Shown one piece after another: positions 4,915 to 64,000 of a stretch of 64,000 nt of DNA (the first letter of the stretch is position 1; the number at the start of each line of letters is the position of its first letter). The notes beneath the pieces were generated by a model. That model saw only the letters and a list, made by a program, of their open reading frames with translations, ran no database searches and was not told the DNA's origin. This stretch comes from Candidatus Omnitrophota bacterium (GTDB taxonomy: Bacteria; Omnitrophota; Gorgyraeia; Gygaellales; Profunditerraquicolaceae): assembly GCA_029561735.1 (NCBI GenBank), contig JAKQWZ010000019.1, positions 19,388 through 83,387 on the forward strand, in the 5' to 3' direction. The translations under genes were made by a program, and so were the position numbers.

Positions 4915-4954
4915 ACCCTTATTTATTATAACATTATATTAACAATTATCAAGC

Positions 4955-29089: not shown

Positions 29090-29097
29090 TTTACCTT

Positions 29098-29134
29098 GGG
29101 GACGGTTCTGAAATACCTCACAGAAGTGTCCCCT
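29098..29134. repeat. REP hairpin element (family A), left flank of the RAYT gene
   Basis: gggacggttctgaaatacctcacagaagtgtcccct. An imperfect palindrome in which GGGACGGTTCTG pairs with CAGAAGTGTCCC. Confidence 0.6.
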
Positions 29135-29196
29135 ATTTTAAAAATTATGTTAGAAATTAACATTTGTTGCGTCTATTATCATAGGAGGTGATAGAT

Positions 29197-29673
29197 ATGC
29201 CCAGAACAGCGCGGTTTACAATCGAAAATGGATATTACCATATTATCACAAGGGGAAATCAAAAACAAATTGTTTTCAAGGAAGAGACCGATTACACTAT
29301 TTACTTAAATATTCTAAACAAATACAGGAAGCGCTATAAGGCCAAACTCTACTGCTACTGCTTAATGCCAAATCATGTTCACTTGCTTTTAGAAGTTTCT
29401 GAACCTCAAGCTTTACGCAAATTCATGAGTGGATTAAACTTAAGCTATACGATATATTTCAATGCAAAATACAATAAAGTTGGTCATCTTTGGCAAGATA
29501 GATATATAAGCAGACTGATTCATAAAGATAAATATCTGCTGGATTGTATAAACTATATTGAAACCAATCCAATCCGGGCAAATCTGGTCCAAGATATCAC
29601 AATATATCCCTGGAGTAGCTATACGGCTAAAATGGATCAAAATAACAAAATGTTAGATGTACCCGAGATTTAA
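29197..29673 (+). mobile_element. REP-associated tyrosine transposase (RAYT, IS200/Y1 HUH family). The only plus-strand gene in the window.
   Basis: The HUH motif HVHLL and a downstream WQDRY tyrosine are present. AGGAGGTG lies 6 nt upstream of the ATG. The gene is flanked by inverted family-A REP hairpins, so it is not a TIR-bounded IS. Confidence 0.75.
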
Positions 29674-29685
29674 TAATTAGGCTAG

Positions 29686-29745
29686 AGGGGACACTTCTCA
29701 GCACAAAATCAGAACCGTCCCTAGAGTAATTTGAGAACCGTCCCT
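29686..29745. repeat. REP element (family A), right flank of the RAYT gene in inverted orientation, plus a partial 13-nt copy
   Basis: aggggacacttctcagcacaaaatcagaaccgtccct (29686-29722) and gagaaccgtccct (29733-29745). The partial copy overlaps the apgM stop codon. Confidence 0.6.
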
Positions 29746-47481: not shown

Positions 47482-50400
47482 TTATCTTATCCTACCTACA
47501 GGGACTGTCCCCGAGGAGCCATTGTTTACTTCAGGCGACGAAGGGGACTGTCCCTTACTCGGGGACACTTCTGTGAGGGATTTCAGAACCGTCCCTACTT
47601 TGCCGCGGACAAATAAATTGCAAGCAGGCGCTAATTCAACCGGCATCCGGCCCCGGCTCTCAATCCTCTGCCAATCTTGGCCAGAGCTATTAAATTTCAT
47701 CGCATCTTCAACATCAGCAATAACAGTTTCTACATATTCAAAAATACCCCGTGCCTGGCAATGAAGCAATAATGATAACTGCGGTTTGGTCAGGGGATAA
47801 CGCAAAGCCACATAATTTCCTTGTCCTGCCTGTTGGGCAGCCCAATCTACGATTTTGCACCACGTCTTTACGCGTTCATAGAAATTCTGGCAGAATGTGC
47901 TGATAGATAAATATAAGCTATTATCCGACGTGGTCAAGATTGCTCCGGCTACAGCCACAAACCTGTTGTTGTGCTCGATCAAATATACGTTCCTGTTTAA
48001 GGCGCGCATGATAAACCCTTCGCCGAGGTTCGTATCATGACCAGTAAGCGTAGTGCCCCACTGAGCCGTAGTCATGTCTGCGTATATATTAAAAGCTTCT
48101 TTTAATAATTCCAAAAACGGCAAATCTTTATCGCTGACAAATTTAATCGCAAATGCCGGATTATTAGTTTTAAAAGATAGCCACAACATCATTATCACTA
48201 TTTCGGCGATTGCGTTTTTTACCAGCCTGTCCGGATTGCTGCCAAGTATCACCAGCAGGCGGCTGGCAACCCTTTCAATAAGCAAAGGGTTATCCAGGCA
48301 AAGTTGAACTAAAGCATTTGTCAAATCATGATTAATACAGCATGGCTGCATATTGATATCAGCAGAATTAATGATCATCTGATCGATATCTTCATCAGTT
48401 GGTATAGTCAAACCATCTTTTACTTGCGATTTAGGCATGACCGAGCCCTCTTTTTCATTTTGGCGAGGGAATCCCGAGCCGCTTCCATTAGGCTTTGAGC
48501 GGCGAGGGGCTCCGCACCCCCCGTCCGCCGGCGGTTCAGGACGTTTGCCTTCTGCAGGATATGTGCCACCCAAATCTTCAATAGCTGTAGGGACTGTCCC
48601 CGCCGTGTCATTTTGCTGGGCGCTCAAAGGGGACTGTCCCTTATCCGGGGACACTTCTGTGAGAGATTTCAGAACCCTGCCTTGCCGGCAGGCAGGCGTC
48701 CCTCCTTTTATATATCCGATTTCAAAAGCATAGGTTAACAAATCAGTGTTGTTGCGCTCAAACCATCCGGATAACTCCTTGAACTCTAGCTCTATATAAT
48801 GATGCAGATACATCCTGCCGATGCTGGTATTAACATAAACGTTGTATTCAAACTGGCGCTTTGGATAACGCAACCTGTTGATCTCATCTCCGAATATTGA
48901 ATCAATATTATTCCACCAAAGATTATGGCACCCTAAAGAACAAGGATCATCGCAAGGCCGGTCTTTGCCCAGCTCATACGAAAAACTTCTACCCGCTCTA
49001 AGCATCACTATAGTAAAATCATCTTTTTGCCAGGGAATAGCCAATCGATTTTCACCGCTGACATAAAAATACCTTTGGCAAACTCTGCCCCTCCAATTTG
49101 AACGGTTAAATCTCAAATGGATGAGCGGAAATAAATTTCGCAGTAAATATTTGAAAGAGGCCGGATAGGGTATCTGTTCCCAGCAATCTACTTCTTTATA
49201 TGTAGTATCCATTAAGCCATCTCCGCCCATACTATCATCAACAAACAAAAGGTTAACAGTGCTTTGGGCTACTATCTCTGCCCATTTATCCATAAATATT
49301 AAATCCGCCTCGCTCTCATGCAGCGAAGGAAGAACTTCGATGGTTGTATCCAGATAATACTCAATTTTTCCCTCATCCAGCCACTCTTGAGCCAAGATAA
49401 ATTCTGCCTGTTTTAACGGTATTCTCCTCTGCTGCGATAACTGCGCAGCAAGCCGGTCAAACTCAAGCTTAGCCTGTTCGGGGTTTTCCAACTGCTGCCA
49501 CCATTGATCAATTGCCCAGACATACGGGACTCCGCTGCGGGCCATGCCAATGACCAATACTGATTTTTTAGTCTGCCTGCTTAAATCAATAGCTACATCA
49601 TTGACATTGCCGGCATCAGCTGCGCTGTGGGCAATCAAACCCTCCAACTGCCAGCGCCGGTAAGCGCTTCCCCGGCTAAAACGGGCTAACTTAATTTCTT
49701 CATCTAATAAATACAGCTGGCTTTTTGTTTCCTCCTGCTTTATTTCCAAACACTGCACTCCCGGGCAAGACGGAATCATTAACAACGGTTCCGGCCCTGG
49801 ATCAATACCGCGAAAAACATTGATCAGAAAATCAAATGCATCCGGATCTTGCTGCGGATAAATTTTACGGATCATGCCGGCCAATTGCTCGCCTAAACAG
49901 TATCCGATTTTGCCTTCTACTTCTTCTACTTCAATTAATTCAGTGCCTTGCGGATTAAATGCAAGGATATATTCCCGAACCCTTTTTATTGCTTCCTCTT
50001 GCGGCAATCCTACTAAAGTAGAACCAAAATTTGATCCTTGCTCATAATTATCTCCCTGCCGCACCCAGCCCGAAGCCAAAACAGCAAAACAAGTGGCAAA
50101 ACAATTATTAGTATCACTATCACACAAACCTAACGCGCATTCCAGGAAATGGCCTGCTTCATGGCAAAATGTATGTTTTTGCCAATGATCTTGCAGGCTT
50201 ATATACTTCCCATATCTGCTATGCTGGCCGTTTATCATGCAATCCGGCAGATTATTAATTTCTTTTTGTGTATCTATTACATAATCTAATGAAAACCAGG
50301 AAAACATGCCTGAAACAATTGTCATAACATAAAATATGAACCAATGATGGCTGTGGAGAACAGGATATAATAACGACAAATATAAGGATATATTAATCAG

Positions 50401-53400
50401 TTCGGCTAATGCTATGCAATTTCTCTGGCGCAACATATAATTACGCATTGAATTAATGCTATAGCCTTTTATTTTTTTGACGATTTCTGCGGCTTCCTTG
50501 GAGCCGGGATCAATAAAGCGCTTTAATAATTCTGCCAGATACGGCTTTACTTCTTGCCAATTATCTAAATTGTGATCAACCCTTACCCTTTCAACTGCTT
50601 TTTGGAAATCTACTGCCGGCGCAGGCAATGGTTTTTCAAAAAGAGAGTAATAAATTCTGACTTTATCCTGAGTAAACATATCATGGTAGAAACTGGCCGC
50701 GTGCTGTTGAACAAAGAATTCGCTCTTGCGCGCATCGCTATAACGCAAACCTAATTTTCTGCCTGCGTTTTTCAGATCTCTAACCAGCCGGGCATATTCT
50801 GTTTCTAAATATAATTTCCCTCCGGGCTTCAAAACTGCAAGAATACCGTTCAAGTTAGCGTAAAAGCTCTCCGTTGGTTTTTTTCGGGAAGTATATTTGA
50901 ATACTGCATCGTCGCCGTTTAAATTAGGGAATTGCACAATGACAAAATCCGCTGTTGAGGGTTCGATCTGCCCCTGCAGTACTCTCAAACTATCTCCGTG
51001 GAAAATATGTATATTCTTTATTCCCAGCTTATCTGCCTCAGTTTGCAATTTTTCAACCAAATATTGATCTACTTCTATCAGATAATAATCAATATCCGGA
51101 TTGTTAATCGCCCGCTGGATTGCTGCCTTGCCATTGCCAAACCCGAGCTCAATACCTATCGCCCTATCAGAACTTGTGGCTTCCTGCCCTTCAAAAAATG
51201 CCGGGTCATTGGCAAATGCGTGGCCTACACCGTAGCGTTTTTCGCTGTACTTTATGGTATAAGAATTTTCTAATTGCCTAACCTGCTCAATATCGCTGCC
51301 GGGAATCAGCACAAAAATAAAATCACCGCTGCGTAGTTCATAATATGCCTTTATTTGTGTGTTGCCGCCTAACTTGTGATAAACCTCAAAAGGATAGCGC
51401 CAGATTTTTGGCCGGGCGGTTAAAGAGCGTTTTATCCAAAGCTCGCCATCCTCATCGTCTTCTACGGAAAAAAGCAATTTATCCGCTGCTCCGGACAGAT
51501 CATTTTCATAGACTGCCAGCTCAATTGCCCCTTGCTGCCATAATTTATGCCGCGCAATCCGCACGCACATCCGGCTATCTTCGCCAGCGCCTAAACGCCA
51601 TGATGTATTGGTGAAAAATGCTCCGTCATTGGCAAATGCGTGGCCTACACCGAAACGCGGCTGTGCAAGATCAATCAATCGCTGAAGCCCAACAGGCATA
51701 CCTCTGGAAGTTTTTTCTTTTAGCCGGTAATGCATTAATAACCCGCCTAGAGTTTTGCCTGCGCATCTTTTAATCGGTACGGAAAAATCAGCCAGTTTTT
51801 CCACTGGCCTACCCAGCTCTTCTACCAATAACCTGATAAACCCTATTTGTATATCTTCCGGAACATTATCCCAGCGGTTAATTCTGCCTTTGCTTAGCTT
51901 CTTGACAAAATAATCCAGTGTCAGATTCTGGTTGAGTCCTATCCTCTCCTTAATATGAGCTAAAACATCAGCAGCGCTCTCTTTTGGATACTGCTTTCGA
52001 TAATATTTCCATAATGACATTAATGATTTATTGCCTAATGCCTTTACCTTCAAGGTAAAATCAGTGCTGCTTAATTCGCCGGCGTCTTTTTTCTTATGTT
52101 TTAAGGCAAGCTCAATAAAATATCGTTGCACATCCAAAGGCACCTGCTCCCATTTATCAAAATGCTTCTGCCTGATAAAAAATCTTATCCACTCTTCGGC
52201 GCTAACCGGATGCTCTTTGATACCTAGCACTTCTTTTATTTTTAATACCACCTCCGGGCGGGATAATTCCGGATACCTTCGGCAATAATAAGTAAGCATC
52301 CCACCCAGGCTTTTTCCCGCTAATAATTTTAATGGCGCTACAAAGTTATAAACCATCACCTGGAAAGATAATTTTCCGCGTTCTTTCGCGGCCTCTTCAA
52401 CAAATTCTCTTTGAATATCTAATGGCGCTTCCGACCAGCAATGGAGCATGCCACTCTTTACTTTTTCCACCCATTCACTAAAACTTAATCCCTGCTGCTT
52501 GATTCCTAGCTTTTTCATAATCAACCGGTTAATCTCATCAGGGGTTGCCGGCTGATGCTGACGGGCATAATAACTGAATAATCCGCTAAGCTGCCTGTTG
52601 CCTAAAATAGCGATCGGCTTGCGGTAATCCTCGCTTTTAAACTGCCCGGGCAGCTTTCCTAATTCAGCAGCTGCCAATTCAATAAATCTTTTCTGCGCTC
52701 TTTCCGGGATTTTGCGCCAAAGAGTAAATTGTCTTTTTTGAATAAAATCAGTAAATATTTTTTCCGGCATTGCCCCTATTGCTACCGGCAGGCTAACCAA
52801 ATCCTCTTGTTCTGTACCTTCTGGCTGCCTGTGATAAATCCGGACCATTGCCCGGTGAATAAAATCTTCCCAGTTATCAGGCGCTATTGCTCCTGCAGCG
52901 ATAAAATTATCCACGCAATACAATGCCCTATTAAGGCATTCGGCTAACAACTCTTCAGTTTTGCCCTCTTGGATCATCCGGTCAAGGCGGGCTAACTCTA
53001 TAATTGATTCTTTGCGCCACGGCGTTGCCTGTTGAGTAGCTTTTTCCTGCCCAAGCAATGCTCCCAGGCAAAACACCGGAGAAACGAAAAGCCCAAAGGA
53101 TGAATGATGATGGACGAGGAGCGATAGAAGGGCCAATATCAATATGCCGGCAAGCAATCCGGATTCGCCGGCTGAGCTTTGCAGCGCCTTTATAATTTTT
53201 GTTTTGGCTCTTTGCAAAGCGTTATCTATTTTTTTGACCCCGACTTTTAAAGTTTCTGCTGCTTCGGCATATGAATCGCCCATGCGCGCTTTAAGCTCAA
53301 AAGCTAGCCTCTCAATCGGCGATAAATTAGCTGCGGCTATCAATTGCCTGAGAACTTCCTGGTTAATACTATGCATAAATGCGTCTTCGGCAGGCGGATC

Positions 53401-56400
53401 AGGAAGCTGGTCGCCGATTTCTTCACTATCATCTTCAAACCTGTATCCGTTTAAAGAAAGATTATTCGGATCCCTTAAGTAGCTCTTAATAGCGCTGCGC
53501 ATAGCATTTTGAGCTGCCCCGCGTAAGTACTTCGCTAAGCTTCCCTTATTATGGTCATATCTTCCGGAGCGTAGCGCCTGATCCATCCTTTCTTCGCATA
53601 GAACAATTAATTCATCTGTTTCCAAACCCGGATAATCTCTGTGTGTTTTCACAGCCTCTATGCGGGCTATCCATCTGTGCTTTTCTAAAATATCTTCTTC
53701 ACTTTCGCCAAATCCGTTTAGCTCATTACTCCTTCTGGTAATCCGGCGCAAAATATCCCGGCGCTCTTTTTTTCTGCCTGCTTCGATAAATAAAGCCACC
53801 TCATCATTGGCTAATTGTTTTTCGGCTTGAACTAATTCTACGTCTGACAAAGCGCTTTCTGCGGGCTGATTAGCCTCTGCAGCCATCGCCTCTGCCTCCA
53901 AAGTTAAGCCGATCTGCCTGCGCACCACATAAGCCACATACTGCTTCCACATCATTTGCTGGTGTTTAGCTACTATAGCTTCCCGGCGCCTTCTTTCTAA
54001 TCGCGCTTTCTGCTCTGCTCTTTCTTGCTGCCGGGATATCCGCGCTGCTTTACTGGCTTCTTTTTGCGCCAAGCGCTCTACTTCTTTTGCCTTTTTAAAT
54101 TCCGCAACAGCATTATCTGCATCTCTGCGGATTTCCTCCTCCCATTCCCCGGGGCTTTGCGCAATAAAATCCAATCCGGTATGGGTTTCAAAAACTTGCG
54201 GTTGCATTTCTGCTTCAATTTCAAGCTTACGCACTTCCAAGCTCTTTAAAGCCCTGCCTACTCCGGATATATGCCAACCACTCTTTCTCTGCCCAGAACT
54301 GGAATAAATCCTTACCGGAGCCATGTCAGCTAAAATAGCTCTGACTTTATCTGCATCAACGCCATATTTTTCCAGCAACTTAACCAAATTTTTAGCCGCC
54401 ACATTACGCATACTGAATACCGAATCTTTAGTTTTATCCATTGCCTGCATTATGGCCGGCATATTCTGTTTATCAACAAAATATGCTTTTAGTATCGCGG
54501 TATTGTCTTTGGTGAATTTCAAGCCGTCTATCACCCAGCCTCCGGCGATAACAGCTTCCAGCTCAACAATAATCTGGCCCAAGTATTTTGGTAAATCTGC
54601 TAACCTATCTTTAGTTAAAACCGGCCCGATTATCTTTTTATCCAGCTCCGATTCCAGTATTTGGTAAACCCTGCTTTTTGCTTCACCCAAAGCCCGGGCA
54701 ACTGCTTTTACTCCGTCGCAGCGGTAAGCAGCGATATTCTGCACTCTTTCTAACTCAAAATTTGCGGCAATCTGCTCTTCAGTTAAAGCTTCCAAATAAT
54801 ACAGTTTTAAAGTTTCCCTCCACACCGGCCTCAGGCCTTTAACCGAGGCTTGCGGATTTGTTACAATCCTGATTATTTCCCGGCTTAATTCCTGATCAGT
54901 TATTACAGGAACAACTGATCCATTTTGCACCAGCCCGAACAATACAGGTAACCCTACAAGTAGGGACGGTTCTGAAATTACCTTCAAAGGTGTCCCCGAC
55001 AGGAACGCTTCTGTGAGGGAATTCAGAACCGTCCCTAAAGAGGCAACAAGCTCGCGGCCAAAGAGCAAGGCCGCCAGAGCCAGCAAGCCTACAACCACCG
55101 CAGCAATAACTCCTATACGACCCTTGCTATCTAGAAGTAGGTTATCGGCAACCGCTTTAGCTGCCCAAAATTCTTCAGCATAAAATCTTTCCAGCTCTGC
55201 TCTTTTATTGCGATAAGCCGGATTAAAAGCAGGGATATTATGCGGCGGCACTGCGGGATACCGGAAATACCCCATCAGATCATCGATCATCGGGAATACT
55301 TCACTATGAATAGTATCATCGTCTTCTAAATACATCTGCTCCTGAGCTAGCCCTATATCCTTAAAGGCAAGGCCAAAATCAGCAACGTGCATAATTTTTA
55401 GTTTACCGTCAGGCTCTCTAATAAGCCTGAAATTACCCTTATGCATATCAGAACGCGGAGCTGTTATTGTTCCGTTTCCTAAAACAGAGGTTTTCATCCT
55501 TGAGTTAATCCAACCTAAAGCGTGCAAACGCGCAAGAATGCTTAACACCTGCTCCGACACGCTCTGCGCCTGCTCAAAATCAAGCATATCCGGACGGATA
55601 TTTTCCAGCCTTTTCGCGTCCTGATATTCAAAAGCCGTGATAACCAGCGGCCCTTGCGCAGTGTAGACGATCTGCCTGCCAAAGGCGTCAATCACACAAT
55701 CGGTATTGACTAATTTAAAAATGGGCAATGTTACCCCTGCGTTAGCGCCAAAATTATTTACCAGATCAGCAGAAACATCAAAATCACTTTCCGATAAGAG
55801 ATGCCTGCCGTATTCAAACATATCCCCGGTCATTTTAAATTCCATAGCATCAGTCACAACACCTGACTGCATGATAAAGATTATCATCCTGCGGAAAGAT
55901 TCGGTTATAGGCGTCATATATACATCTCCAAATAAATGCGTGTATATACCATTATCCAAAGCGTATTGCAACGGCGGACGCGGATCTTTGGCGCTTATTT
56001 CAGGCGGATATTCCTGACGTAATTCACTGCCCAAATGGATAAGCTCGCGCAAATTCTGCATATCAATGAACAAATTCAGGATACCCGGATGTTTCTGCGC
56101 AAAACTACTAACAGCTATATCTTCTCCGGAATCAAGGAAAGTAAATTTACTGCAGGAAGTAGCGATTACAGCAATCAAACATACCGCAAGCAGGGACGGT
56201 TCTGAAATTACCTTCAAAGGTGTCCCCTCTGGTGACAGTTGTGTAAAGAAAATCAAAACCACCCCTAACAATATCACTTGCATAGGTTTTTCACTAACAG
56301 CGGTACGGATTTTACCCGATAGCCGATAAAACCAATCTTTTACTCTGGTAAATAATTCCGGCCAGCAAGAAAGTTCTTTGGCTTCTTTATGGAGAGAAAT

Positions 56401-59400
56401 AACTCTATGGAATATTTCATCGTGGCCATGGAAAACCTGATGCTGCAGCGCCCTTAATGCGTAGTGGCATTTTACGGATTCCGGGACGTTTTCCGGGGTA
56501 AAACCGTTTTCTTCCAGTTTTTGTTCGTAGAATCTCTGGTCAGTTACAAAAGCAAGGATTTCGTCTGCGGTAATTAACTCTGCGGCATTGGCTGCGTGGC
56601 CTAATTCGTGGAACTGGGCAAGCGGATTATCAAAAATACTGCTGTGTAAGCCGACTACCGGCGCACCGTCATACATCGCGGCAAAACCGGGAATATCCAG
56701 ACTACGGTCAATTTCTATCAATAAGGAACGCGGGTCTTCGGTGATATCTACAAGGATTATCTCTAAGGCGCTGTCAATATCACTGATCCCTATACGGGTA
56801 AAATCCGCAAATCTCTCCGGAGGCGCGCGTATGCCGTGGATAGTGGCTTCTTCTTTTTGCTTAGCCCCAAACCTGCGGATCATCGCCTTGATTATCACCT
56901 GATCATCCGGCAAAATCTCCAGCGACTCTATTTCTATACTCTCATATTTTCCTATAGCACCGCATTTTGGCTCAGTTTCAGCTGATTCCCGTGCAGAAAC
57001 AGGGACAGAATTATTGCTTCCGCCTCCAGACAACTTCCAAAGCGCTAATCCGGCTATTGCAATTAATCCAGCAAACGAAGTGGCAAGTGGCAAGTTGCAA
57101 GTTACAAGTGGGATGGAAAATGCTGGAGAAGCAATAAACAATAAAACTAATAGTGGTAATACAACAAATCTAAATAGCGGAGCCCAATTTATTCGGGATT
57201 TTCCCTGCTCCACAATGCCTCTTTGTTCCAATAATTTCTCGATATTCCCGTTTGCTTCAATCAAGTCTGAATGCGTTACCACCCGGGCAAGCAATTCTTC
57301 ATATAGATCCTGAGAAATAGCCCTGCCCTCCTTTGCAACTTTTAATCCCGATTCAAAGAATTCTTTTTCTTCATCAATAATCAAGTATATGAGATGTAAT
57401 TTGCGCGGAATGCCGAATATATAATGATACCAAGGATAAGCTGCAGCTTCTTTGACAATTGCACGATATTGAAAGCCTCTCATAAATAAATAGCCGCATC
57501 GGCTGAATTCTTCAATAGTCTCACCTTCAAATCCGCGGGCAAAAGATGAACCATCGCAATAATACTTTGCCAGATAGATTAAATTACGCAAAGCAATTGC
57601 TCCTAAAAGATAAAATACAATACTATAATTACAATGATATAAACAAAATACTCCCAACCCGAATAATAGAACCAATGTAAATGACTTAACGCCTATTCTA
57701 GAATCAAGCCCGGGATGGATTCTTCCAACAAGCATAATATTAAGCAGATTATATTTCCCGCCGTAATCCGCCGCGGCTGTATGCTGCCAATAATTTGTGC
57801 TTTGCGCTAATTCTTTAATTCTCTCATTCTGACTTAGTATCTTCTCTTCTATATCATTATGCTCACGCCAATTTCGTCCTCTTTCCCACCCACCCCAACT
57901 GCCGGGAGCAATGCCAAGAAAACCTACAAGATCCATTGGCCAGCCAAATAATTTATAAATAAACTTCCTTACTTGAACAGATAAGCTATTGGCCTGACAT
58001 TTAAACTTATCAGATATATCAATTCCCAGATAGCTGTAAACTCTTTTGACGTTTTTCCAACTTTGTTGATCTAGGTAATTGATATTACAAATGACAAGTT
58101 CAGTGGCGGCAATAGATACGTCTAAAATAGAAAAAATAATTTCGTCTAAACAATGCCAATGATATTCACCTATCCTTGTTGGCCATACTAATAAGGCTTC
58201 TACGATCTGATCGGGAGAAATGATATAGCCTGCCTGTCGGCGGATAACTTCTGCGGCTATTGAGAAAGTCCTGCCGACTAACTCCGGCGGGATATCTTTT
58301 GACTTAATATCTTTAAATTCTTCCTTGAGCAATTCAATTTCCCGCTTTAGCTGATTTTCGGATATCCCTTGAAGAAGTTTTTCGCGTAAAGCAAGGATAA
58401 ACTGCGCCTGTTCTTTTAAGTCTTCCGGCCAGATATATTCTGACGCGAATACTGTTCCGTCTTCAGTTACCGGCGCAACGACCTTTGGAACCGCAGAACC
58501 AATTACATTTGGCTTTTTCTGGAAAAATCCGGCAATCACTAACATTGCCAAAACAGCTAATCCAACTATTGCAATTAATTCAGCTGCGCCTGCGGGTGGA
58601 GCGTGGGGCTGGACCGATTTCCAGAACTGCTCAAGGCCGCCCGAGTAAAAACCATCCAACATGCCGGCAAAAGGAAGGACTAATAAAAACGGCATCCCAG
58701 ATTTAGCAGCCGGCACATTAGTAACTTGGGCGGCTCTTTCTGACAGCTGCTTACCCTCCTCAATTATCTGCGAGTAAAGATGCAAGGCTTGTTGCGAGTC
58801 GCGATCCAATACAAAATAATAAATGGATAATAATTCCTTATCTGTCAGATGGGCACGCCCTTTGTAGAAATACTTAGCCAATAAGCCTTCAAAATATTTT
58901 ATTTGCATATCAGTATAGCCGCTGCGGGCTTTGAATTCGTTTCGTTTTTGGCGGGCATACCTAGCTTCCTTAACTAATACACAGCTTACGTAAATAACCG
59001 ATATTGCTATCCATGTAATAGCCAAAATCACCAGCCACTCGGATAAACTTCCCGGCCAGCCAATAGCTACAAATCCTAAACAGCCCATGCCTTTCCATAA
59101 ATCATCAGGGTTGTCGCGCATCAGGCTGCGGATTGTTTTAGCAAATTCCTGGGGAGAAAAACTGAATTGCTTCCCGCTACTTTGGTTACCCCAGCCAGGC
59201 CATAATTTTGCCATCCTGCGATTAATGGTCAGATTAGCGCGGTAAAATCTCCCCTTGACTGTAGGCACACTTACACCCAGTAATCCGGCTATTTCTCTTA
59301 AATTGTAGCCTTGCATTGCCAAAGCCACTACTTCCCGGCGTTCTGACGGCAATGATCTAATAATATCCTGTATTGCTAAAACCTGCTCTGCACACGCCAT

Positions 59401-62400
59401 GTCCGAAGCAAAAGTATCAGCTTGCGCCGGAGTAAGTTCGTCATAAAGCTGAGCCTCGCTCTTAGGTGATCCCATTGCCTCATTATAAGGTAAATCAACG
59501 ACTAACGCCTCACGCCTGCGTTTTTTGACGGCGTTATAAATCAGGTTATGTATAGAGGCATAAATGATGGTTTTAAAGCTCGAGAGGCATTTGAAATTGC
59601 GGCAGCATTTTAAAAATACTACTTCTAGATCAGCCAGCTCAATTTCCAGCTCTTCCAATCTAAAGCCAAATCCGGCGGCGAAAGTAAAGGCAGTGCCCAT
59701 TAAATAGGTATTCAGGCCTTTTTTGCAGTCTTCATTGATAAACCTCTGTACTTCTTGACGCGCTGCCTCGCTCTTAAAGCCGATTTTATCGTCTTCTATC
59801 TGCACCCTAGCCAGATCCGGCCCGCCGCCGTAATTTATCGGGCCGTCATACGGAGCCACATCCGGCCTTGACCCGCCTTCGCTAGTAATAGAAGAAATTA
59901 CCTCGGAAGGATGCGTATAAAACACCTGTTCATAAATGCTGTAGCCTTTATCCAGATCAATGCTGCCAACGCGCTCCCTGAAACACAGAGGAAAGATTAT
60001 TTGCGGCTCCCCGGGCAATTTTGTCATTTGTAGAATAAAGTGCGCGTCTTTAGCCTCAACTGTCTTGATGCCAACTGCCCTGCATTGTTTATTAAGAAAA
60101 TCTATAATTCTGTCGTAATCAACGCTTGTGACAATGGCACTGTTATCAGTATTCCTGGAGTTTAATATCTTGCGCGGGTCAAAATGCAAAGAGGATATCC
60201 CGTCTACCTGCAAAATCCGATGCGCCTCTTCAAAAGCAATAACCGGATCATAAACGTAAGGCAAGGCATAAGTAGACATTACTATATGGAATGAATCATA
60301 GGCAAAAGGCAGGTTCTGACTGTCCGCGCAGACAACATGAATCCCTTTCCCGCGTAATTCTTCGCTGCGCTGCTGTGAACTAAAATTACGCAGCGTTGTG
60401 CCCACCACAAAGATCTTATCGCCGAAAACCTCTTTAATTTCTTCCAAGGCAACTGCCCGGCCGCAGCCGATATCGAGTATACGCAGTGGATTTTCAGCAG
60501 AAGCGTTGAAATATTTTATCATTGCCGAAATTATGTTATAGAAATTTACTCCGTGGATTTCGTTATATCCGTCCTCTCCGCGCACTCCCCGTAGAGTCTT
60601 CATCTTACCGGATAATTTTCCTGATTGAAATACTGCCCCCAGGCCCTCAATATATTGCTGGCTCGAATAGAATTTACGATATTCCGGGTCATTGCGGCGC
60701 CCATACTGACGCATAGCATGAACACTGCGCCAAACTTCATCTACAACAGGTTTAACCGGCTCTTCTGTTTCAGGAGCAACAATGCTTTCTTCTTTAATTA
60801 CTCCCTGCCAATAGGCAAAATTCTCTGTCTCCAAAGCCACAAACTCATCTATATCGCTTCTTAATCCTCTATTTCTTCCTGCGACAAAAGCCGGGAATAG
60901 AACCGCGTAATACTGCCGGCTATCCAGGAGGCCTGAATCTACCAAGGATTTTCCGAATTTAAAATAGGCGCAAGCTGCCTCAAGCACATCGTCATTGATA
61001 TTGGCTTCCTGCAAAAGATGTTCTACTGTCTCCCCTACGTAACAGAATGCCTTGGCATACTGATTGGCATCCATAACTAAATGCAGGAAACGCAGACTCT
61101 CTTCTTCGCGCATAAGGCATTCACCGCTAGCTATCATCAGAGGCAGATACAAAGGCTTGTCGCCTGCGGAATAAGAAAAATTGTATTCCGGAAAATCTTC
61201 ACAAATAAAAGCATTACTGTCTAAACCTGATAATTCTCCCAAGCCGCGCCTAATTATACGCTCGTGCATGCGCGTGCCAGGAAAAGATATAACTTGCGGG
61301 CTAATCGGGCCTAAGCCGCCTTCCAGTGCCGGCATAACAATACGGCTTACCCGGCGTAAAGCATCAATATCTTCCGAAGAAACAGAACCCGGATTAACCA
61401 GAATATAATTTGCATCCTGACTGCCGCGCATAAGCTCTATTACGCCCTCCGTAAGATCCTGCCTGTGTTCACTTGCTCCGTTTAATATAACCAGCCTCGT
61501 TTTTTCTTTGAAACTGCGGTCATCCACAGCCACCGCCAGATTACGAATAGTCTCAAGCACGTCCTTAAGCCGGGTGTCAATGTTGGTTAAAATAAGATAC
61601 TGAATACTGGGGATGCCCAGATGGCGCAGGCATACCACTACTTTTAAGATATCTTCAAACTTGTAACCCTTATTTTGCCGCGCCAATTCTTCGTCGGTAA
61701 ATGCATCTGTGCCGATGGCTAATCCCATCTCCGAGAATATATAGTTATTTTCGCCGTAAAGCGCATGCAATTTCTGCACAAAGTCCGTGTTGATCTCATT
61801 TTGTACTTTTCCCGCAGCATCACTGTGTTTCTCCAGAAATACATTATCGGAAGTCTGGATATGGCGCACGCGCAATTTCGCTAAACCCGGATCACTTGCC
61901 CATTTCCTTAATATCTCCAAACCGCGCTCACCGCACTCTGCCAGGAAAAAGTCATCATCTACAAAATCCACCACACAGAAATTTTCTATATCTATACCAT
62001 GAGTTTGTGCATACTCCGCAAACCTCTTCAACTCCCTTATCACTGCTTCAGGCGGCATTGCCCTCACATGCTTTCCATGCACGGCGGAACAGAAAACACA
62101 CCCACGGTTACAGCCGCGCGAAGTCATCAGCTGCAGAATAATTGGCGGCGTGTTGGTTAGATCAAGGAAAGAATAATCAAGTTCGAGGTTGGTTAACTCT
62201 TCGACACTAAGGCGATTGGGCTGGCCGCTTGCGCAGTCTATCAATACATTGCCCTGTCTGAAGATAAATCCTCCGAGTTCCAACAGCTCCGTTAATATCC
62301 GGCTGGGAACGCTGTGGCTACCCATGATCTTAAGCATTCCCGGAAAAACAATTTCTGCTTCTCCGGCAAAAACAATATTCGCCTCGGGAAGCTGGGCCGC

Positions 62401-63987
62401 GCAAATTTCAGGCGTCATAGTTGCCATCGGCCCGCCCACAGCAATAAGCAACTCTGGGAACCGCTTACGGATATGCGCTAATAATATCTGCATCTCATCA
62501 AGCCCGGCAGCATAAACAGTAAATCCGAGAAGAGACGGATTTGCTTTTTCAATAGCCGCGTCAATTTCAGTGAATAAAAACTTACCTTGATTTTTTTGTA
62601 TCCCCGCACAGGTTATTTCTGTAGGTATACCTGCTTTGCGCAAACTAGAGCCAAGATAATGGCTTGAGACTGAAATAGCACCCTGGTCCCTTCTATCACG
62701 AGAGAATACGGGATTGGAGAATAAAAGCACTTTGCTTTCTACTCCGGGCATAGCTAGATTACCGGCAACCCCTACTCTTGTTTCCTTTAACGCTTCTTTT
62801 GCTTGGTTAATATAAATCCTTTGCTCCTGCCTACTTAAATAAAGAAATTCCTGCTGCAGGCGGACGATCAAACGCGGATTATCCCATGAAATATCTTTCG
62901 CTATCTCTATAACTTCTTGTAGCGACTGAGAAGATCCGATATAAATGACACCGCCGCTTATTACCCTACTCTTAATCTCATCTTTAAAGATAACTTCCAT
63001 CGAGCGGATCAGCCTAAAATATGCCTGCGAAGGTATCTCTATCAATTCCGGATTAAAGGCAAGCCACTTGCCGGAACATCCTACCGGCTCCATAATAATT
63101 TTCCCCTCGTCATCAACCACAGGGATTCTTCTTATTGGTTCGCGGATCTCCTCACAAGCTGTGCCATCTTCTATTGCCGGCCCGCCGCCGTAATTTATCG
63201 GGCCGTCATAAGGTCCAACATCCGGCCTTGAGCCGCCTTCCGGATTATCCACAACGTAGGGGACTGTTCCTGCCTGCCGGCAGGCAGGTAAACCTCCCCT
63301 GCGGCTGTTAATAACTTCGAAATCCGGCGCGCCGGTAGGCGGCATTTGCTCCAGCACTTGCGGGCTTCCCAACTTATTGCTTATCCAGACATAATAATAA
63401 CGGATAAAACCGCAAAGCTCATAAAGATTGGCAGCAATTTCTCCCCAGCCGTAAAGATGCGCTGGCTCGTGAAATCTTTGTTTAGTATATTGAAGATTTT
63501 CCGGCAAATGCTTAAAGGCAGGGTCACAGAATATATGCGATATTCCTTCGTGGATAATTGATTGACTGACAGGCATAAACAGATACTTGATAATCAGCTT
63601 AACTTGCTCCAGCGGAGGGCCGCGCAAGCCATATTCTTTAATCATTGCTCTTAAAGTAAAAAGCCCGTTATACTGAAAATATATACTTGCGGCAAATATA
63701 GCCAAACCAATAATCCAGCCGTAGGCCAGTCCGATAAAAGATAAACTCAACAGATAAAGCGCACCTGCCAATGCCAGCGCTGCGGCAGCATTGGAAGGCA
63801 TAGATTGTGGCTGCCTACCTTGAGCCGGGTAATTTTTCAAATGGCTAAACATCAGAGAATATTTTGACCATAAGCGCAGGATAATTTTTACCGGGCCTTG
63901 GCCGCCGGATTTATATAATTTCCCGTCAATATATACTTGCCAATAAGCACCTGAATATTCTAATTCGGCTATATATTTATAATCCAC
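47482..63987 (-). CDS. Giant 5501-codon multi-module ORF. The upstream end is not closed within the window.
   Basis: 16,506 nt without a stop in the standard code. The ATG at 63985-63987 has no in-frame stop above it before the window edge. Recognisable modules, by protein position:
- N-terminal TM helices.
- B12-binding radical SAM at ~440-900 (CNRGCVFCSA).
- Class I SAM methyltransferase at ~1130-1330 (ILDIGCGRAVA).
- ECF-sigma-like sigma2+sigma4 at ~1395-1600 (REVVALAMQGYNLREIAGLLGVSVPTVKGR) followed by a TM helix.
- HELGH motif at ~2461.
- Kinase-like DMHKGN...ADFG at ~2780-2890.
- Second ECF-sigma-like module at ~3430-3600 (LSPIERLAFELKARMGDSYAEAAETLKV) followed by TM helices.
- Four tandem ~95-aa repeats at ~3780-4100.
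- TrmB-like MTase at ~4270-4420 (IGIELGFGNGK).
- HEAGH motif at ~4609.
- A C-terminal ~270-aa module.
REP palindromes are embedded in-frame. Whether it is translated as one polypeptide is unresolved. Confidence 0.6.
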   Translation of the reverse strand: MDYKYIAELEYSGAYWQVYIDGKLYKSGGQGPVKIILRLWSKYSLMFSHLKNYPAQGRQPQSMPSNAAAALALAGALYLLSLSFIGLAYGWIIGLAIFAASIYFQYNGLFTLRAMIKEYGLRGPPLEQVKLIIKYLFMPVSQSIIHEGISHIFCDPAFKHLPENLQYTKQRFHEPAHLYGWGEIAANLYELCGFIRYYYVWISNKLGSPQVLEQMPPTGAPDFEVINSRRGGLPACRQAGTVPYVVDNPEGGSRPDVGPYDGPINYGGGPAIEDGTACEEIREPIRRIPVVDDEGKIIMEPVGCSGKWLAFNPELIEIPSQAYFRLIRSMEVIFKDEIKSRVISGGVIYIGSSQSLQEVIEIAKDISWDNPRLIVRLQQEFLYLSRQEQRIYINQAKEALKETRVGVAGNLAMPGVESKVLLFSNPVFSRDRRDQGAISVSSHYLGSSLRKAGIPTEITCAGIQKNQGKFLFTEIDAAIEKANPSLLGFTVYAAGLDEMQILLAHIRKRFPELLIAVGGPMATMTPEICAAQLPEANIVFAGEAEIVFPGMLKIMGSHSVPSRILTELLELGGFIFRQGNVLIDCASGQPNRLSVEELTNLELDYSFLDLTNTPPIILQLMTSRGCNRGCVFCSAVHGKHVRAMPPEAVIRELKRFAEYAQTHGIDIENFCVVDFVDDDFFLAECGERGLEILRKWASDPGLAKLRVRHIQTSDNVFLEKHSDAAGKVQNEINTDFVQKLHALYGENNYIFSEMGLAIGTDAFTDEELARQNKGYKFEDILKVVVCLRHLGIPSIQYLILTNIDTRLKDVLETIRNLAVAVDDRSFKEKTRLVILNGASEHRQDLTEGVIELMRGSQDANYILVNPGSVSSEDIDALRRVSRIVMPALEGGLGPISPQVISFPGTRMHERIIRRGLGELSGLDSNAFICEDFPEYNFSYSAGDKPLYLPLMIASGECLMREEESLRFLHLVMDANQYAKAFCYVGETVEHLLQEANINDDVLEAACAYFKFGKSLVDSGLLDSRQYYAVLFPAFVAGRNRGLRSDIDEFVALETENFAYWQGVIKEESIVAPETEEPVKPVVDEVWRSVHAMRQYGRRNDPEYRKFYSSQQYIEGLGAVFQSGKLSGKMKTLRGVRGEDGYNEIHGVNFYNIISAMIKYFNASAENPLRILDIGCGRAVALEEIKEVFGDKIFVVGTTLRNFSSQQRSEELRGKGIHVVCADSQNLPFAYDSFHIVMSTYALPYVYDPVIAFEEAHRILQVDGISSLHFDPRKILNSRNTDNSAIVTSVDYDRIIDFLNKQCRAVGIKTVEAKDAHFILQMTKLPGEPQIIFPLCFRERVGSIDLDKGYSIYEQVFYTHPSEVISSITSEGGSRPDVAPYDGPINYGGGPDLARVQIEDDKIGFKSEAARQEVQRFINEDCKKGLNTYLMGTAFTFAAGFGFRLEELEIELADLEVVFLKCCRNFKCLSSFKTIIYASIHNLIYNAVKKRRREALVVDLPYNEAMGSPKSEAQLYDELTPAQADTFASDMACAEQVLAIQDIIRSLPSERREVVALAMQGYNLREIAGLLGVSVPTVKGRFYRANLTINRRMAKLWPGWGNQSSGKQFSFSPQEFAKTIRSLMRDNPDDLWKGMGCLGFVAIGWPGSLSEWLVILAITWIAISVIYVSCVLVKEARYARQKRNEFKARSGYTDMQIKYFEGLLAKYFYKGRAHLTDKELLSIYYFVLDRDSQQALHLYSQIIEEGKQLSERAAQVTNVPAAKSGMPFLLVLPFAGMLDGFYSGGLEQFWKSVQPHAPPAGAAELIAIVGLAVLAMLVIAGFFQKKPNVIGSAVPKVVAPVTEDGTVFASEYIWPEDLKEQAQFILALREKLLQGISENQLKREIELLKEEFKDIKSKDIPPELVGRTFSIAAEVIRRQAGYIISPDQIVEALLVWPTRIGEYHWHCLDEIIFSILDVSIAATELVICNINYLDQQSWKNVKRVYSYLGIDISDKFKCQANSLSVQVRKFIYKLFGWPMDLVGFLGIAPGSWGGWERGRNWREHNDIEEKILSQNERIKELAQSTNYWQHTAAADYGGKYNLLNIMLVGRIHPGLDSRIGVKSFTLVLLFGLGVFCLYHCNYSIVFYLLGAIALRNLIYLAKYYCDGSSFARGFEGETIEEFSRCGYLFMRGFQYRAIVKEAAAYPWYHYIFGIPRKLHLIYLIIDEEKEFFESGLKVAKEGRAISQDLYEELLARVVTHSDLIEANGNIEKLLEQRGIVEQGKSRINWAPLFRFVVLPLLVLLFIASPAFSIPLVTCNLPLATSFAGLIAIAGLALWKLSGGGSNNSVPVSARESAETEPKCGAIGKYESIEIESLEILPDDQVIIKAMIRRFGAKQKEEATIHGIRAPPERFADFTRIGISDIDSALEIILVDITEDPRSLLIEIDRSLDIPGFAAMYDGAPVVGLHSSIFDNPLAQFHELGHAANAAELITADEILAFVTDQRFYEQKLEENGFTPENVPESVKCHYALRALQHQVFHGHDEIFHRVISLHKEAKELSCWPELFTRVKDWFYRLSGKIRTAVSEKPMQVILLGVVLIFFTQLSPEGTPLKVISEPSLLAVCLIAVIATSCSKFTFLDSGEDIAVSSFAQKHPGILNLFIDMQNLRELIHLGSELRQEYPPEISAKDPRPPLQYALDNGIYTHLFGDVYMTPITESFRRMIIFIMQSGVVTDAMEFKMTGDMFEYGRHLLSESDFDVSADLVNNFGANAGVTLPIFKLVNTDCVIDAFGRQIVYTAQGPLVITAFEYQDAKRLENIRPDMLDFEQAQSVSEQVLSILARLHALGWINSRMKTSVLGNGTITAPRSDMHKGNFRLIREPDGKLKIMHVADFGLAFKDIGLAQEQMYLEDDDTIHSEVFPMIDDLMGYFRYPAVPPHNIPAFNPAYRNKRAELERFYAEEFWAAKAVADNLLLDSKGRIGVIAAVVVGLLALAALLFGRELVASLGTVLNSLTEAFLSGTPLKVISEPSLLVGLPVLFGLVQNGSVVPVITDQELSREIIRIVTNPQASVKGLRPVWRETLKLYYLEALTEEQIAANFELERVQNIAAYRCDGVKAVARALGEAKSRVYQILESELDKKIIGPVLTKDRLADLPKYLGQIIVELEAVIAGGWVIDGLKFTKDNTAILKAYFVDKQNMPAIMQAMDKTKDSVFSMRNVAAKNLVKLLEKYGVDADKVRAILADMAPVRIYSSSGQRKSGWHISGVGRALKSLEVRKLEIEAEMQPQVFETHTGLDFIAQSPGEWEEEIRRDADNAVAEFKKAKEVERLAQKEASKAARISRQQERAEQKARLERRRREAIVAKHQQMMWKQYVAYVVRRQIGLTLEAEAMAAEANQPAESALSDVELVQAEKQLANDEVALFIEAGRKKERRDILRRITRRSNELNGFGESEEDILEKHRWIARIEAVKTHRDYPGLETDELIVLCEERMDQALRSGRYDHNKGSLAKYLRGAAQNAMRSAIKSYLRDPNNLSLNGYRFEDDSEEIGDQLPDPPAEDAFMHSINQEVLRQLIAAANLSPIERLAFELKARMGDSYAEAAETLKVGVKKIDNALQRAKTKIIKALQSSAGESGLLAGILILALLSLLVHHHSSFGLFVSPVFCLGALLGQEKATQQATPWRKESIIELARLDRMIQEGKTEELLAECLNRALYCVDNFIAAGAIAPDNWEDFIHRAMVRIYHRQPEGTEQEDLVSLPVAIGAMPEKIFTDFIQKRQFTLWRKIPERAQKRFIELAAAELGKLPGQFKSEDYRKPIAILGNRQLSGLFSYYARQHQPATPDEINRLIMKKLGIKQQGLSFSEWVEKVKSGMLHCWSEAPLDIQREFVEEAAKERGKLSFQVMVYNFVAPLKLLAGKSLGGMLTYYCRRYPELSRPEVVLKIKEVLGIKEHPVSAEEWIRFFIRQKHFDKWEQVPLDVQRYFIELALKHKKKDAGELSSTDFTLKVKALGNKSLMSLWKYYRKQYPKESAADVLAHIKERIGLNQNLTLDYFVKKLSKGRINRWDNVPEDIQIGFIRLLVEELGRPVEKLADFSVPIKRCAGKTLGGLLMHYRLKEKTSRGMPVGLQRLIDLAQPRFGVGHAFANDGAFFTNTSWRLGAGEDSRMCVRIARHKLWQQGAIELAVYENDLSGAADKLLFSVEDDEDGELWIKRSLTARPKIWRYPFEVYHKLGGNTQIKAYYELRSGDFIFVLIPGSDIEQVRQLENSYTIKYSEKRYGVGHAFANDPAFFEGQEATSSDRAIGIELGFGNGKAAIQRAINNPDIDYYLIEVDQYLVEKLQTEADKLGIKNIHIFHGDSLRVLQGQIEPSTADFVIVQFPNLNGDDAVFKYTSRKKPTESFYANLNGILAVLKPGGKLYLETEYARLVRDLKNAGRKLGLRYSDARKSEFFVQQHAASFYHDMFTQDKVRIYYSLFEKPLPAPAVDFQKAVERVRVDHNLDNWQEVKPYLAELLKRFIDPGSKEAAEIVKKIKGYSINSMRNYMLRQRNCIALAELINISLYLSLLYPVLHSHHWFIFYVMTIVSGMFSWFSLDYVIDTQKEINNLPDCMINGQHSRYGKYISLQDHWQKHTFCHEAGHFLECALGLCDSDTNNCFATCFAVLASGWVRQGDNYEQGSNFGSTLVGLPQEEAIKRVREYILAFNPQGTELIEVEEVEGKIGYCLGEQLAGMIRKIYPQQDPDAFDFLINVFRGIDPGPEPLLMIPSCPGVQCLEIKQEETKSQLYLLDEEIKLARFSRGSAYRRWQLEGLIAHSAADAGNVNDVAIDLSRQTKKSVLVIGMARSGVPYVWAIDQWWQQLENPEQAKLEFDRLAAQLSQQRRIPLKQAEFILAQEWLDEGKIEYYLDTTIEVLPSLHESEADLIFMDKWAEIVAQSTVNLLFVDDSMGGDGLMDTTYKEVDCWEQIPYPASFKYLLRNLFPLIHLRFNRSNWRGRVCQRYFYVSGENRLAIPWQKDDFTIVMLRAGRSFSYELGKDRPCDDPCSLGCHNLWWNNIDSIFGDEINRLRYPKRQFEYNVYVNTSIGRMYLHHYIELEFKELSGWFERNNTDLLTYAFEIGYIKGGTPACRQGRVLKSLTEVSPDKGQSPLSAQQNDTAGTVPTAIEDLGGTYPAEGKRPEPPADGGCGAPRRSKPNGSGSGFPRQNEKEGSVMPKSQVKDGLTIPTDEDIDQMIINSADINMQPCCINHDLTNALVQLCLDNPLLIERVASRLLVILGSNPDRLVKNAIAEIVIMMLWLSFKTNNPAFAIKFVSDKDLPFLELLKEAFNIYADMTTAQWGTTLTGHDTNLGEGFIMRALNRNVYLIEHNNRFVAVAGAILTTSDNSLYLSISTFCQNFYERVKTWCKIVDWAAQQAGQGNYVALRYPLTKPQLSLLLHCQARGIFEYVETVIADVEDAMKFNSSGQDWQRIESRGRMPVELAPACNLFVRGKVGTVLKSLTEVSPSKGQSPSSPEVNNGSSGTVPVGRIR
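47501..47596. repeat. REP cluster (two family-B gggactgtcccc units plus one family-A unit) inside the 3' end of the giant ORF, immediately before the PilZ start
   Basis: gggactgtcccc (47501-47512), ggggactgtccc (47543-47554), ggggacacttctgtgagggatttcagaaccgtccct (47561-47596). Translated as VGTVLKSLTEVSPSKGQSPSSPEVNNGSSGTVP. Confidence 0.6.
48590..48705. repeat. REP cluster (B, B, A) with a nested family-C palindrome inserted into the A unit
   Basis: The cluster has the same B...B...A organisation as 47501-47596. The A unit ggggacacttctgtgagagatttcagaacc is interrupted by ctgccttgccggcaggcagg (48677-48696), then resumes with cgtccct. Confidence 0.6.
54963..55036. repeat. Family-A REP dimer (REPIN-like: forward unit, 11-nt spacer, reverse unit) in-frame in the giant ORF
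   Basis: gggacggttctgaaattaccttcaaaggtgtcccc gacaggaacgc ttctgtgagggaattcagaaccgtccct. Encodes GTVLNSLTEAFLSGTPLKVISEPSLL between two hydrophobic segments. Confidence 0.6.
56193..56266. repeat. Family-A REP unit plus a decayed partner copy in-frame in the giant ORF
   Basis: gggacggttctgaaattaccttcaaaggtgtcccc followed by the degenerate gtgtaaagaaaatcaaaaccacccct. Encodes EGTPLKVISEPSLL. Confidence 0.55.
59817..59880. repeat. 64-nt coding repeat, copy 1 (copy 2 at 63177..63240)
   Basis: ccggcccgccgccgtaatttatcgggccgtcata is identical in both copies and ~90% identity holds over 64 nt. Encodes GGSRPDV(A/G)PYDGPINYGGGP at giant-ORF residues ~1371-1390 and ~251-270. Confidence 0.7.
63177..63240. 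repeat. 64-nt coding repeat, copy 2
   Basis: See 59817..59880. This copy lies directly adjacent to the B/C element at 63258-63300. Confidence 0.7.
63258..63300. repeat. Family-B-like unit fused to a family-C palindrome in-frame in the giant ORF
   Basis: ggggactgttcc tgcctgccggcaggcagg taaacctcccct. Encodes GGLPACRQAGTVPYV. Confidence 0.5.
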
Positions 63988-64000
63988 TTCATTTTTCCAT

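Follow-up and report, generated by a model that had tools for sequence, protein, structure and literature searches.

In this study, a 64,000-nucleotide stretch of a Candidatus Omnitrophota genome (assembly GCA_029561735.1, contig JAKQWZ010000019.1, positions 19,388 to 83,387 of the forward strand), called the window here and numbered from its own first letter, was investigated with respect to two sigma-factor-like modules embedded in one giant protein. We observed that each module is a complete sigma-2/linker/sigma-4 unit of the sigma-70 family, real but divergent, and that each is followed by a hydrophobic hairpin within the same polypeptide. This anatomy, two sigma modules and membrane hairpins in a giant protein, is regarded as highly probable. 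With regard to its working, the reading that we tentatively favor is that the sigma units are sequestered covalently at the membrane as parts of the giant protein and would act after proteolytic release.

The giant gene occupies 47482..64000 on the minus strand, as do all of its features given below, and forms an open reading frame (ORF) that exceeds 5,505 codons and reaches the end of the window without closing, with hydrophobic hairpins between the modules of its multi-enzyme product. From the GTG listed as its start down to the end of the frame (63987 to 47482) there is no stop codon over 5,501 codons, and the four in-frame codons upstream of that GTG (63988-64000) are open too, reading WKNE in agreement with a homologous giant protein, P0001 (..WKNEIDNKYIAELEYSG..), from assembly GCA_041663985.1, contig JBAYLQ010000017.1. 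The giant gene thus starts outside the window: the edge of the window produces the listed GTG start as an artefact, the complete protein exceeds 5,505 amino acids (aa), and the residue numbers used here are offsets rather than true positions. Codon-usage log-odds, trained on the 35 other genes of the window, were best for the frame of the giant ORF in every 200-codon segment of its 16.5 kb, showing that it is one continuous coding region and ruling out a chance or non-coding open frame. Within its product, Pfam recognized a B12-binding plus radical S-adenosylmethionine (SAM) module, Methyltransf_11, Methyltransf_4 and two Sigma70_r4_2 domains. The ORF and these domain matches bear out what an initial annotation, made from the letters of the DNA, had stated, namely that sigma modules lie within one very long, enzyme-rich polypeptide, and its conversion of residues to nucleotide positions was also correct.

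Sigma module 1 (59188..59790, residues 1400-1600) consists of an ECF-like (extracytoplasmic function) sigma-2 domain, a linker of ~30 aa and a sigma-4 domain, as indicated by TIGR02937, AlphaFold2 (AF2) and Foldseek. Its region-4 helix-turn-helix (HTH; 59236..59376, residues 1538-1584) matched Pfam Sigma70_r4_2 (PF08281) with 39.9 bits and E 3.3e-10, above the gathering score of 25.7. The NCBIfam model TIGR02937 (sigma70-ECF) matched residues 1459-1590 with E 8e-11 and 41.8 bits, 1.1 below its cutoff of 42.9, and covers only profile positions 40-163, hence region 2 in part. Including TIGR02937, 58 sigma-factor families matched this module, RpoE, SigW, SigM and SigH being among the ~57 others, and at region 2.2 it reads DLEVVF where the family motif is DLxQE. 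The AF2 model has a predicted local distance difference test score (pLDDT) of 81.6 and displays two helical bundles with a disordered linker between them; the top 50 Foldseek matches in the PDB were all sigma factors of ECF type, some of them through the sigma chain of a complex, and sigma-4 superposes on region 4 of E. coli sigma-E in its DNA-bound structure (2h27) at 1.0 Å over 60 residues. Module 1 is therefore like the classical ECF sigmas RpoE, SigW and SigM, whose models and structures it matches.

Sigma module 2 (53179..53715, residues 3425-3603) comprises a SigH-like sigma-2 domain, an acidic linker of ~35 aa and sigma-4, as indicated by TIGR02937, phmmer, AF2 and Foldseek. Its region-4 HTH (53194..53331, residues 3553-3598) reached 28.5 bits with Sigma70_r4_2, again above the gathering score, and TIGR02937 matched the module with E 3.8e-11 at exactly the cutoff (42.9 bits), covering profile positions 3-165 of 165. 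A hidden Markov model (HMM) of region 2 only, built from 37 stand-alone homologues of module 2, matched residues 3425-3512 with E 1.2e-9 and module 1 marginally (E 0.09), and found nothing else in the giant protein. An HMMER scan with module 2 over 1.84 billion representative proteins returned one giant protein, P0001, at 43% identity; the other 48 matches were almost all stand-alone SigH-like sigmas of ~190 aa, aligned end-to-end at E 2e-8 to 1e-3, together with a few longer proteins and one low-complexity false positive. P0011, considered as a further multi-sigma protein, was rejected as a low-complexity, Cys-rich false positive. A scan of metagenome contigs with the module 2 alignment gave no match. 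The AF2 model (pLDDT 87.0) again shows two helical bundles and a disordered linker, and among the top 50 Foldseek matches in the PDB, headed by B. subtilis SigH, every entry was a sigma factor or a complex aligned via its sigma chain. With this fold, the end-to-end alignment to ~190-aa proteins and the region-4 signature common to SigH-like proteins (KxIDNALQRAKxK), module 2 is like the PRK08295 or B. subtilis SigH type.

The helices of sigma-2 were modeled at pLDDT ~78-97 in both modules, and the sigma-2 bundle is parted from that of sigma-4 by a low-pLDDT stretch of ~25-35 residues, giving the two-domain architecture of ECF and SigH-like sigmas, in which a short linker joins both domains and region 1.1 and a full region 3 are lacking. 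The Foldseek alignments extend over ~160-260 columns (gaps included) and span both domains of sigma chains, ECF sigmas included, and sequence searches of the PDB with the sigma modules gave weak but consistent sigma-factor matches. The region-4 HTHs announced by the initial annotation were thus found in both segments, and the structure comparisons, with nothing but sigma factors among the top 50 matches of each model, do not show generic HTHs. Of its description as two ECF-sigma-like modules, the part concerning module 1 stands, and module 2 is SigH-like rather than classically ECF. Identity between the two modules amounts to only 14%, which indicates separate origins and led us to reject recent duplication. 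Both differ from stand-alone sigmas in being embedded, in having a divergent region 2 and in scoring at or just under the TIGR02937 cutoff.

Hydrophobic segments accompany both modules at the distance that had been proposed, within ~50 residues, as judged by hydropathy. A hairpin of 39 aa (58972..59088, residues 1634-1672) begins 50 residues past region 4 of module 1, its single charged residue, E1650, lying at the putative turn; KEARYARQKRNEFKAR comes after this stretch, and a second hydrophobic cluster lies at 58519-58665 (residues 1775-1823). An uncharged hairpin, also of 39 aa (53047..53163, residues 3609-3647), begins 11 residues past region 4 of module 2, and the flanks of both post-sigma hairpins are rich in K/R. 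Another hairpin (54898..55116, residues 2958-3030) opens the block that contains module 2, and its loop is encoded by an in-frame palindrome at 54957-55038 that resembles a REPIN, a form of repetitive extragenic palindromic (REP) sequence. Along the giant protein, nine such hydrophobic clusters of 32-73 aa were counted, uncharged or nearly so and mostly with K/R on both flanks, and they bound most of the modules, namely the N-terminal part, the part with sigma module 1, an HExxH module, a kinase-like module, the block of sigma module 2 and the C-terminal part. This pattern is typical of helical hairpins and would fit an arrangement in which every large module stays on the same side of the membrane. 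Since hairpins bound most modules, a membrane segment beside a sigma module is a general construction of this protein and not a pairing specific to sigma. Downstream of the sigma modules lie further cytoplasmic-type modules, including repeats and a TrmB-like methyltransferase. The repeats, about four tandem helical units of ~115 aa (~51630-53050, residues ~3655-4118) that come right after the hairpin of module 2, carry the motif W-x-x-IP-x-x-x-Q-x-x-FIELA.., are weakly like residues 2043-2250 of P0001, and had no family match in Pfam at E<=10.

Sigma modules recur in the homologue P0001. This protein, truncated where its contig ends, spans at least 5,714 aa and has several modules in common with the giant protein at 48-66% identity in a different order. 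The block made of hairpin, HTH region, coiled coil, SigH-like sigma and hairpin is conserved between the two as one unit (residues 2965-3652 against 4644-5344 of P0001, 48% identity). Within this block, the hairpin after module 2 keeps its position in P0001 and in L082, a metagenome contig from JGI, with a diverged sequence. The HTH region (54208..54900, residues 3030-3260) is helical, contains one or two weak region-4-like HTHs, and shows a conservation of 58% in P0001 and 82% in L082. It corresponds to the third, lone region-4-like segment of the initial annotation and is thus well conserved in relatives, but the similarity to sigma region 4 is weak: residues ~3050-3100 gave E 0.065 with PF04545, 0.014 with TIGR02937 and 0.004 with TIGR03001, comparison with the sigma family by hhalign gave a probability of 12% (E 0.0024), and nothing useful was found for the region in PDB sequence searches. 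Between it and module 2 lies a Lys/Arg/Glu-rich spacer (53788..54207, residues 3261-3400), predicted as a coiled coil from its sequence and conserved as part of the same block. P0001 also harbors a second sigma-like module, of group-3 type (TIGR02980, the SigB/F/G model, E 2.6e-10; Sigma70_r3, E 4.5e-4). With SigH-like and group-3-type modules there and ECF-like and SigH-like modules here, three sigma lineages are found in two giant proteins, and sigma modules recur. We also noticed that the group-3-type module (residues ~2480-2650; L081 ~7700-8230) is directly followed by an HExxH module, with no membrane segment between.

The contig L082 is syntenic with the window, its downstream genes being 98% identical in nucleotides, and it covers the giant gene from residue ~2703 on at 82-88% identity, which allowed selection to be measured. 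Module 2 has a ratio of nonsynonymous to synonymous substitution rates (dN/dS) of 0.05, the lowest measured in the protein. Its region 2 shows 0 nonsynonymous changes in 96 codons (dS 0.15, dN/dS 0) and the linker between sigma-2 and sigma-4 shows 1 change in 32 codons (dS 0.60, dN/dS 0.02), compared with 0.15-0.44 in the other modules, 0.16 in the coiled-coil spacer and 0.44 in the hairpin after module 2. This indicates that module 2 is functional and the most constrained part measured, and such constraint on the linker would be expected of a working sigma, unlike a bare HTH. The giant gene itself is plastic, as L082 lacks the block of ~460 aa formed by the repeats at residues ~3655-4118 and its ORF is broken, once by a scaffold gap (a run of N) at the repeat where the window has the REPIN, and once by a 1-nt deletion.

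According to the working that we propose, the hairpins would return the chain to the cytoplasm each time, so that both sigma modules would face the cytoplasm, adjoining the radical-SAM, methyltransferase and kinase-like modules whose dependence on SAM and ATP calls for cytoplasmic cofactors, and would be bound covalently to the inner membrane on both sides. Tethering would replace the anti-sigma factor, as a tethered sigma could not join freely diffusing RNA polymerase, and a cut in the flanking linkers or hairpins would free a sigma of ~20 kDa that redirects transcription. Such a cut might be made by an intramembrane or processive protease of the cell, or perhaps by the HExxH modules, themselves unannotated, of the giant protein. 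A comparable principle is known from pro-sigma-E and pro-sigma-K of Bacillus sporulation, inactive membrane-associated precursors activated by a membrane protease; those, in contrast, bear short N-terminal pro-peptides on otherwise ordinary sigma genes and are not internal modules of a giant protein. The release mechanism taken by itself is held with low-to-moderate confidence. A wider version, in which the giant proteins of this lineage serve as covalent reservoirs of alternative sigmas, with at least three lineages captured independently, kept inactive between the membrane hairpins and freed by regulated cleavage, for example on contact with host or prey, seems to us rather doubtful.

Several observations weigh against sequestration followed by release. 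Release is proposed by analogy, with protease, cleavage site and released product all hypothetical, and it would take two cuts per module, given that the modules are internal. The hydrophobic segments and the topology were called from hydropathy only, and the two AF2 models were built on alignments made of sigma factors, so that the fold comparison is not fully independent. Pfam Sigma70_r2 (PF04542) matched neither module even at E<=10; the sigma region-2-like segments of the initial annotation find support in module 2 from the full cover of TIGR02937 and in both from the AF2 bundles, but none from Pfam, and for module 1 the case is marginal. Of the positions that at least 70% of its stand-alone relatives conserve, module 2 retains 53% and the P0001 copy 47%, against 83 +/- 12% in the stand-alone members themselves. 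These losses are concentrated in region 2, as region 4 is nearly canonical with 12/14 conserved positions kept, and region 2.2 reads ELIVLC in place of the family's DLxQEG, a lost motif through which sigma chiefly contacts the beta-prime clamp helices. For module 1, neither the protein search nor the scan of metagenome contigs gave a homologue, which leaves it an orphan. No anti-sigma domain (zf-HC2, RskA, FecR and the like) was detected by Pfam at E<=10 in residues 1591-1900 and 3604-3996. Finally, the deletion in L082 (L082:1960-2030, window ~53810-53860) lies ~30 codons upstream of module 2 and shifts the frame, implying that the fusion of sigma to the giant protein may not be obligatory. 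Behind this frameshift, which is either a real deletion or an assembly error, the sigma would open a separate ORF of 1,979 aa.

The strongest competitor, which we consider unlikely though serious, is that the modules are domesticated derivatives of sigma factors that are never released and are not initiation factors, serving instead as membrane-anchored DNA-binding or protein-docking domains, which might tether DNA or RNA polymerase to the giant scaffold or regulate in the manner of ToxR/CadC-type membrane-bound regulators. The uneven erosion of module 2 would suit such a history, with a canonical region 4 beside a region 2 that has lost DLxQEG and an overall retention of 0.53 against 0.83 in stand-alones, and the silence of Sigma70_r2 on both modules, the missing anti-sigma domains, the anchoring of internal modules at both ends and the presence, ahead of module 2 in the conserved block, of a coiled coil and one or two additional weak HTHs resembling region 4 all agree with it. 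If only the HTH mattered, however, it would be hard to explain that region 2 and the linker are the most constrained parts (dN/dS 0 and 0.02); full-length alignment to stand-alone sigmas is also preserved, and the P0001 copy, reading DLQQI, keeps the Q of DLxQ.

It is improbable that, after the pattern of IutY or ECF52, each module is a canonical fusion of sigma with anti-sigma, its C-terminal membrane part being the cognate anti-sigma sensor, which is how the initial annotation had read the topology. The order of sigma followed by transmembrane (TM) segments is indeed the gross topology of such fusions, and the 50-residue spacer before the membrane segment of module 1 would suit one. This claim found no support in our analysis nonetheless, for no anti-sigma domain was recognized, the gap of 11 residues between sigma-4 and hairpin in module 2 leaves no room for one, the segments look like hairpins back to the cytoplasm rather than a sensor with a single pass, modules other than sigma are bounded by such hairpins throughout the protein, and what follows downstream is cytoplasmic in type. 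The covalent membrane tethering of the sigma modules, by contrast with the anti-sigma pairing, is real.

We likewise give little credence to the view that the sigma genes were passive cargo, taken up into an expanding ORF through gene fusion, perhaps at intergenic junctions that bear REPINs, and functionless once fused, or that the giant ORF is not expressed as one protein. The shuffling of modules between relatives, the absence of the ~460-aa repeat block from L082, the frameshift there just upstream of module 2, the REPIN-like palindromes in frame at module junctions and the orphan state of module 1 would all be expected from it, but the lowest dN/dS of the protein contradicts cargo for module 2, this module is conserved together with its hairpin over a distance of 43% identity, and a single coding frame is maintained over 16.5 kb. 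A phage or plasmid origin of the window was rejected, as its genes are ordinary chromosomal ones and blastn of the window against a phage collection gave no match.

With reference to the literature, sigma factors with TM-containing extensions have been described, such as IutY (ECF243) of Pseudomonas putida and the groups ECF48, ECF52 and ECF53 (e.g. SCO4117), whose activity is thought or shown to be unlocked by regulated proteolysis, as well as ECF263, which bears a C-terminal extension of 5-7 TM segments. The giant protein resembles all of these in having sigma-2 and sigma-4 in one polypeptide, followed by membrane-spanning segments. They are, however, proteins of 300-700 aa with an N-terminal sigma, an anti-sigma or zinc-finger domain before the TM segment and an extracytoplasmic sensor, whereas in the giant protein sigma is internal to more than 5,500 aa, flanked on either side by large cytoplasmic modules and without an anti-sigma domain, and apparent hairpins take the place of the sensor-bearing single pass of the IutY/ECF52-type fusions.

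Giant proteins of Omnitrophota are also known, of the 'Archaeovorin' type or as 'multi-enzyme metabolic clusters'. They measure 10-147 kaa, are rich in TM helices, carry divergent SecA_DEAD domains besides methyltransferase and radical SAM ones, and are poorly conserved and of unknown function. The protein studied here shares TM segments between cytoplasmic-type enzyme domains, methyltransferases, radical SAM, poor conservation and plastic content with them, and differs in that its visible part, the N-terminus lying beyond the window, is smaller, at least 5.5 kaa against lengths above 10,000-30,000 aa; its multi-TM, multi-enzyme content fits the described class of membrane-stapled Omnitrophota giants, to which we assign it. 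The SecA_DEAD-like stretch (PF07517; 58015-58419, residues ~1857-1991) reached E 0.03-0.09 and 12-14 bits, far under the gathering score of 24.6, and recalls the divergent SecA DEAD domains typical of these giants. In searches with the giant protein itself, a word index gave no match at E<=1e-5 for a query of 4,841 aa and did match P0050 with a shorter query, the negative probably being due to the great length of the first query, and a scan of genome contigs gave no match. As for sigma modules within such giants, 'sigma' does not occur as a word in the main text of two papers on giant proteins of Omnitrophota or of a survey of huge proteins, one supplementary file makes no mention of such modules, and in the Nature Microbiology paper on Omnitrophota it appears once, as the name of a supplier. 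The precomputed Pfam list of P0001 already carries PF08281, so that the domain exists in databases, without discussion in the literature found. The earlier statement that this is not a described arrangement can therefore be kept for sigma modules inside giants, which were not found in the literature searched, but not for its two components, as multi-enzyme giants and TM-extended sigmas have each been described.

The giant protein harbors three HExxH motifs, at 56596..56610 (FHELGHAAN, residue 2460), 63457-63471 (residue 173) and 50149-50163 (residue 4609), compared with 0.17 expected from shuffles (P = 0.0015). The motifs at residues 173 and 2460 are also visible in P0001, where the module with the latter is 66% identical, and all three stand ~40-145 residues downstream of a hairpin (residues 59-112, 2274-2317 and 4530-4567). 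The HExxH modules had no Pfam match at E<=10 and found nothing useful in PDB searches, so no recognizable peptidase domain was seen. Judging from sequence, they may be unrecognized membrane-proximal metallopeptidases; cis-proteolysis of the giant protein by them is speculation.

A 64-nt direct repeat, 92% identical between its copies, was noticed in two places: 59817-59880 (residues 1370-1391), where sigma module 1 follows directly downstream, and 63177-63240 (residues 250-271), where the radical-SAM module does. It encodes EGGSRPDV(A/G)PYDGPINYGGGP, is unstructured as RNA (z = -0.8) and occurs nowhere else in the window. A related peptide, EGGSRPAQ(S/P)RPEDYPYDPLNNGG, is present twice in P0001, at junctions of that protein. 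A conserved linker between modules and a processing site are possible roles of the repeat.

The REPIN-like sequences are associated in the window with a Y1 (IS200-like) transposase gene at 29188-29673 on the plus strand, the only plus-strand gene of the window, which is flanked by inverted REP-like sequences at 29075-29112 and 29708-29745 with the arm AGGGACGGTTCTGAA. REP-associated tyrosine transposases are arranged in this way. Within the giant ORF, these REP/REPIN sequences recur in frame and in both orientations (47541-47596, 48627-48682, 54957-55038 and 56187-56268); their translation gives GTVLKSLTEVSP or GTPLKVISEPSLL, and two membrane hairpins at junctions between modules have their loops encoded by them. 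The palindrome at 54957-55038 was identified as repeat family D2, inverted repeats I1-I4, and as RNA the palindromes form 16-bp hairpins, with z = -5.1 for this copy and -3.65. At the homologous junctions P0001 carries its own REPIN variant, GTPLKLILEPCLAGRQASL, a pattern that suggests concerted evolution or a role of REPINs in joining modules.

Outside the giant ORF, the window is an ordinary bacterial chromosome with genes for PilZ, a sugar ABC transporter, GH2, ROK, LacI, RNR and MnmG, as well as Pst/PhoU/PhoR-PhoB, an Mrp/hydrogenase-like complex, NadE and OtsA/OtsB. The best matches of MnmG, at 66% identity, come from metagenome-assembled genomes labelled Candidatus Omnitrophota or, in third-party assemblies, 'uncultured Planctomycetales', and the next-best, at 57-58%, are mostly from Omnitrophota. 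As far as this single marker goes, the organism is probably a deep-branching member of Omnitrophota. An nhaA-I RNA (Rfam RF03057, 47.3 bits) was found at 4867-4918 on the minus strand upstream of a glycosyltransferase-20 (trehalose-6-phosphate synthase-like) gene, with a trehalose-phosphatase gene next after it, and may be an ion-responsive riboswitch governing compatible-solute synthesis.

Discussion of the Omnitrophota giants has so far centered on roles as adhesins, degradative 'coats' or metabolic scaffolds. Strongly constrained sigma modules that come from different lineages and recur in relatives would add a transcription-regulatory role to these, and would suggest a new form of sigma control, in which covalent membrane tethering in a polyprotein stands in place of an anti-sigma partner. 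If the wider reservoir version were true, one polypeptide would couple membrane events to a transcriptional switch without an anti-sigma factor. If the modules are domesticated DNA-binding domains instead, they would be a clear case of exaptation of the sigma fold.

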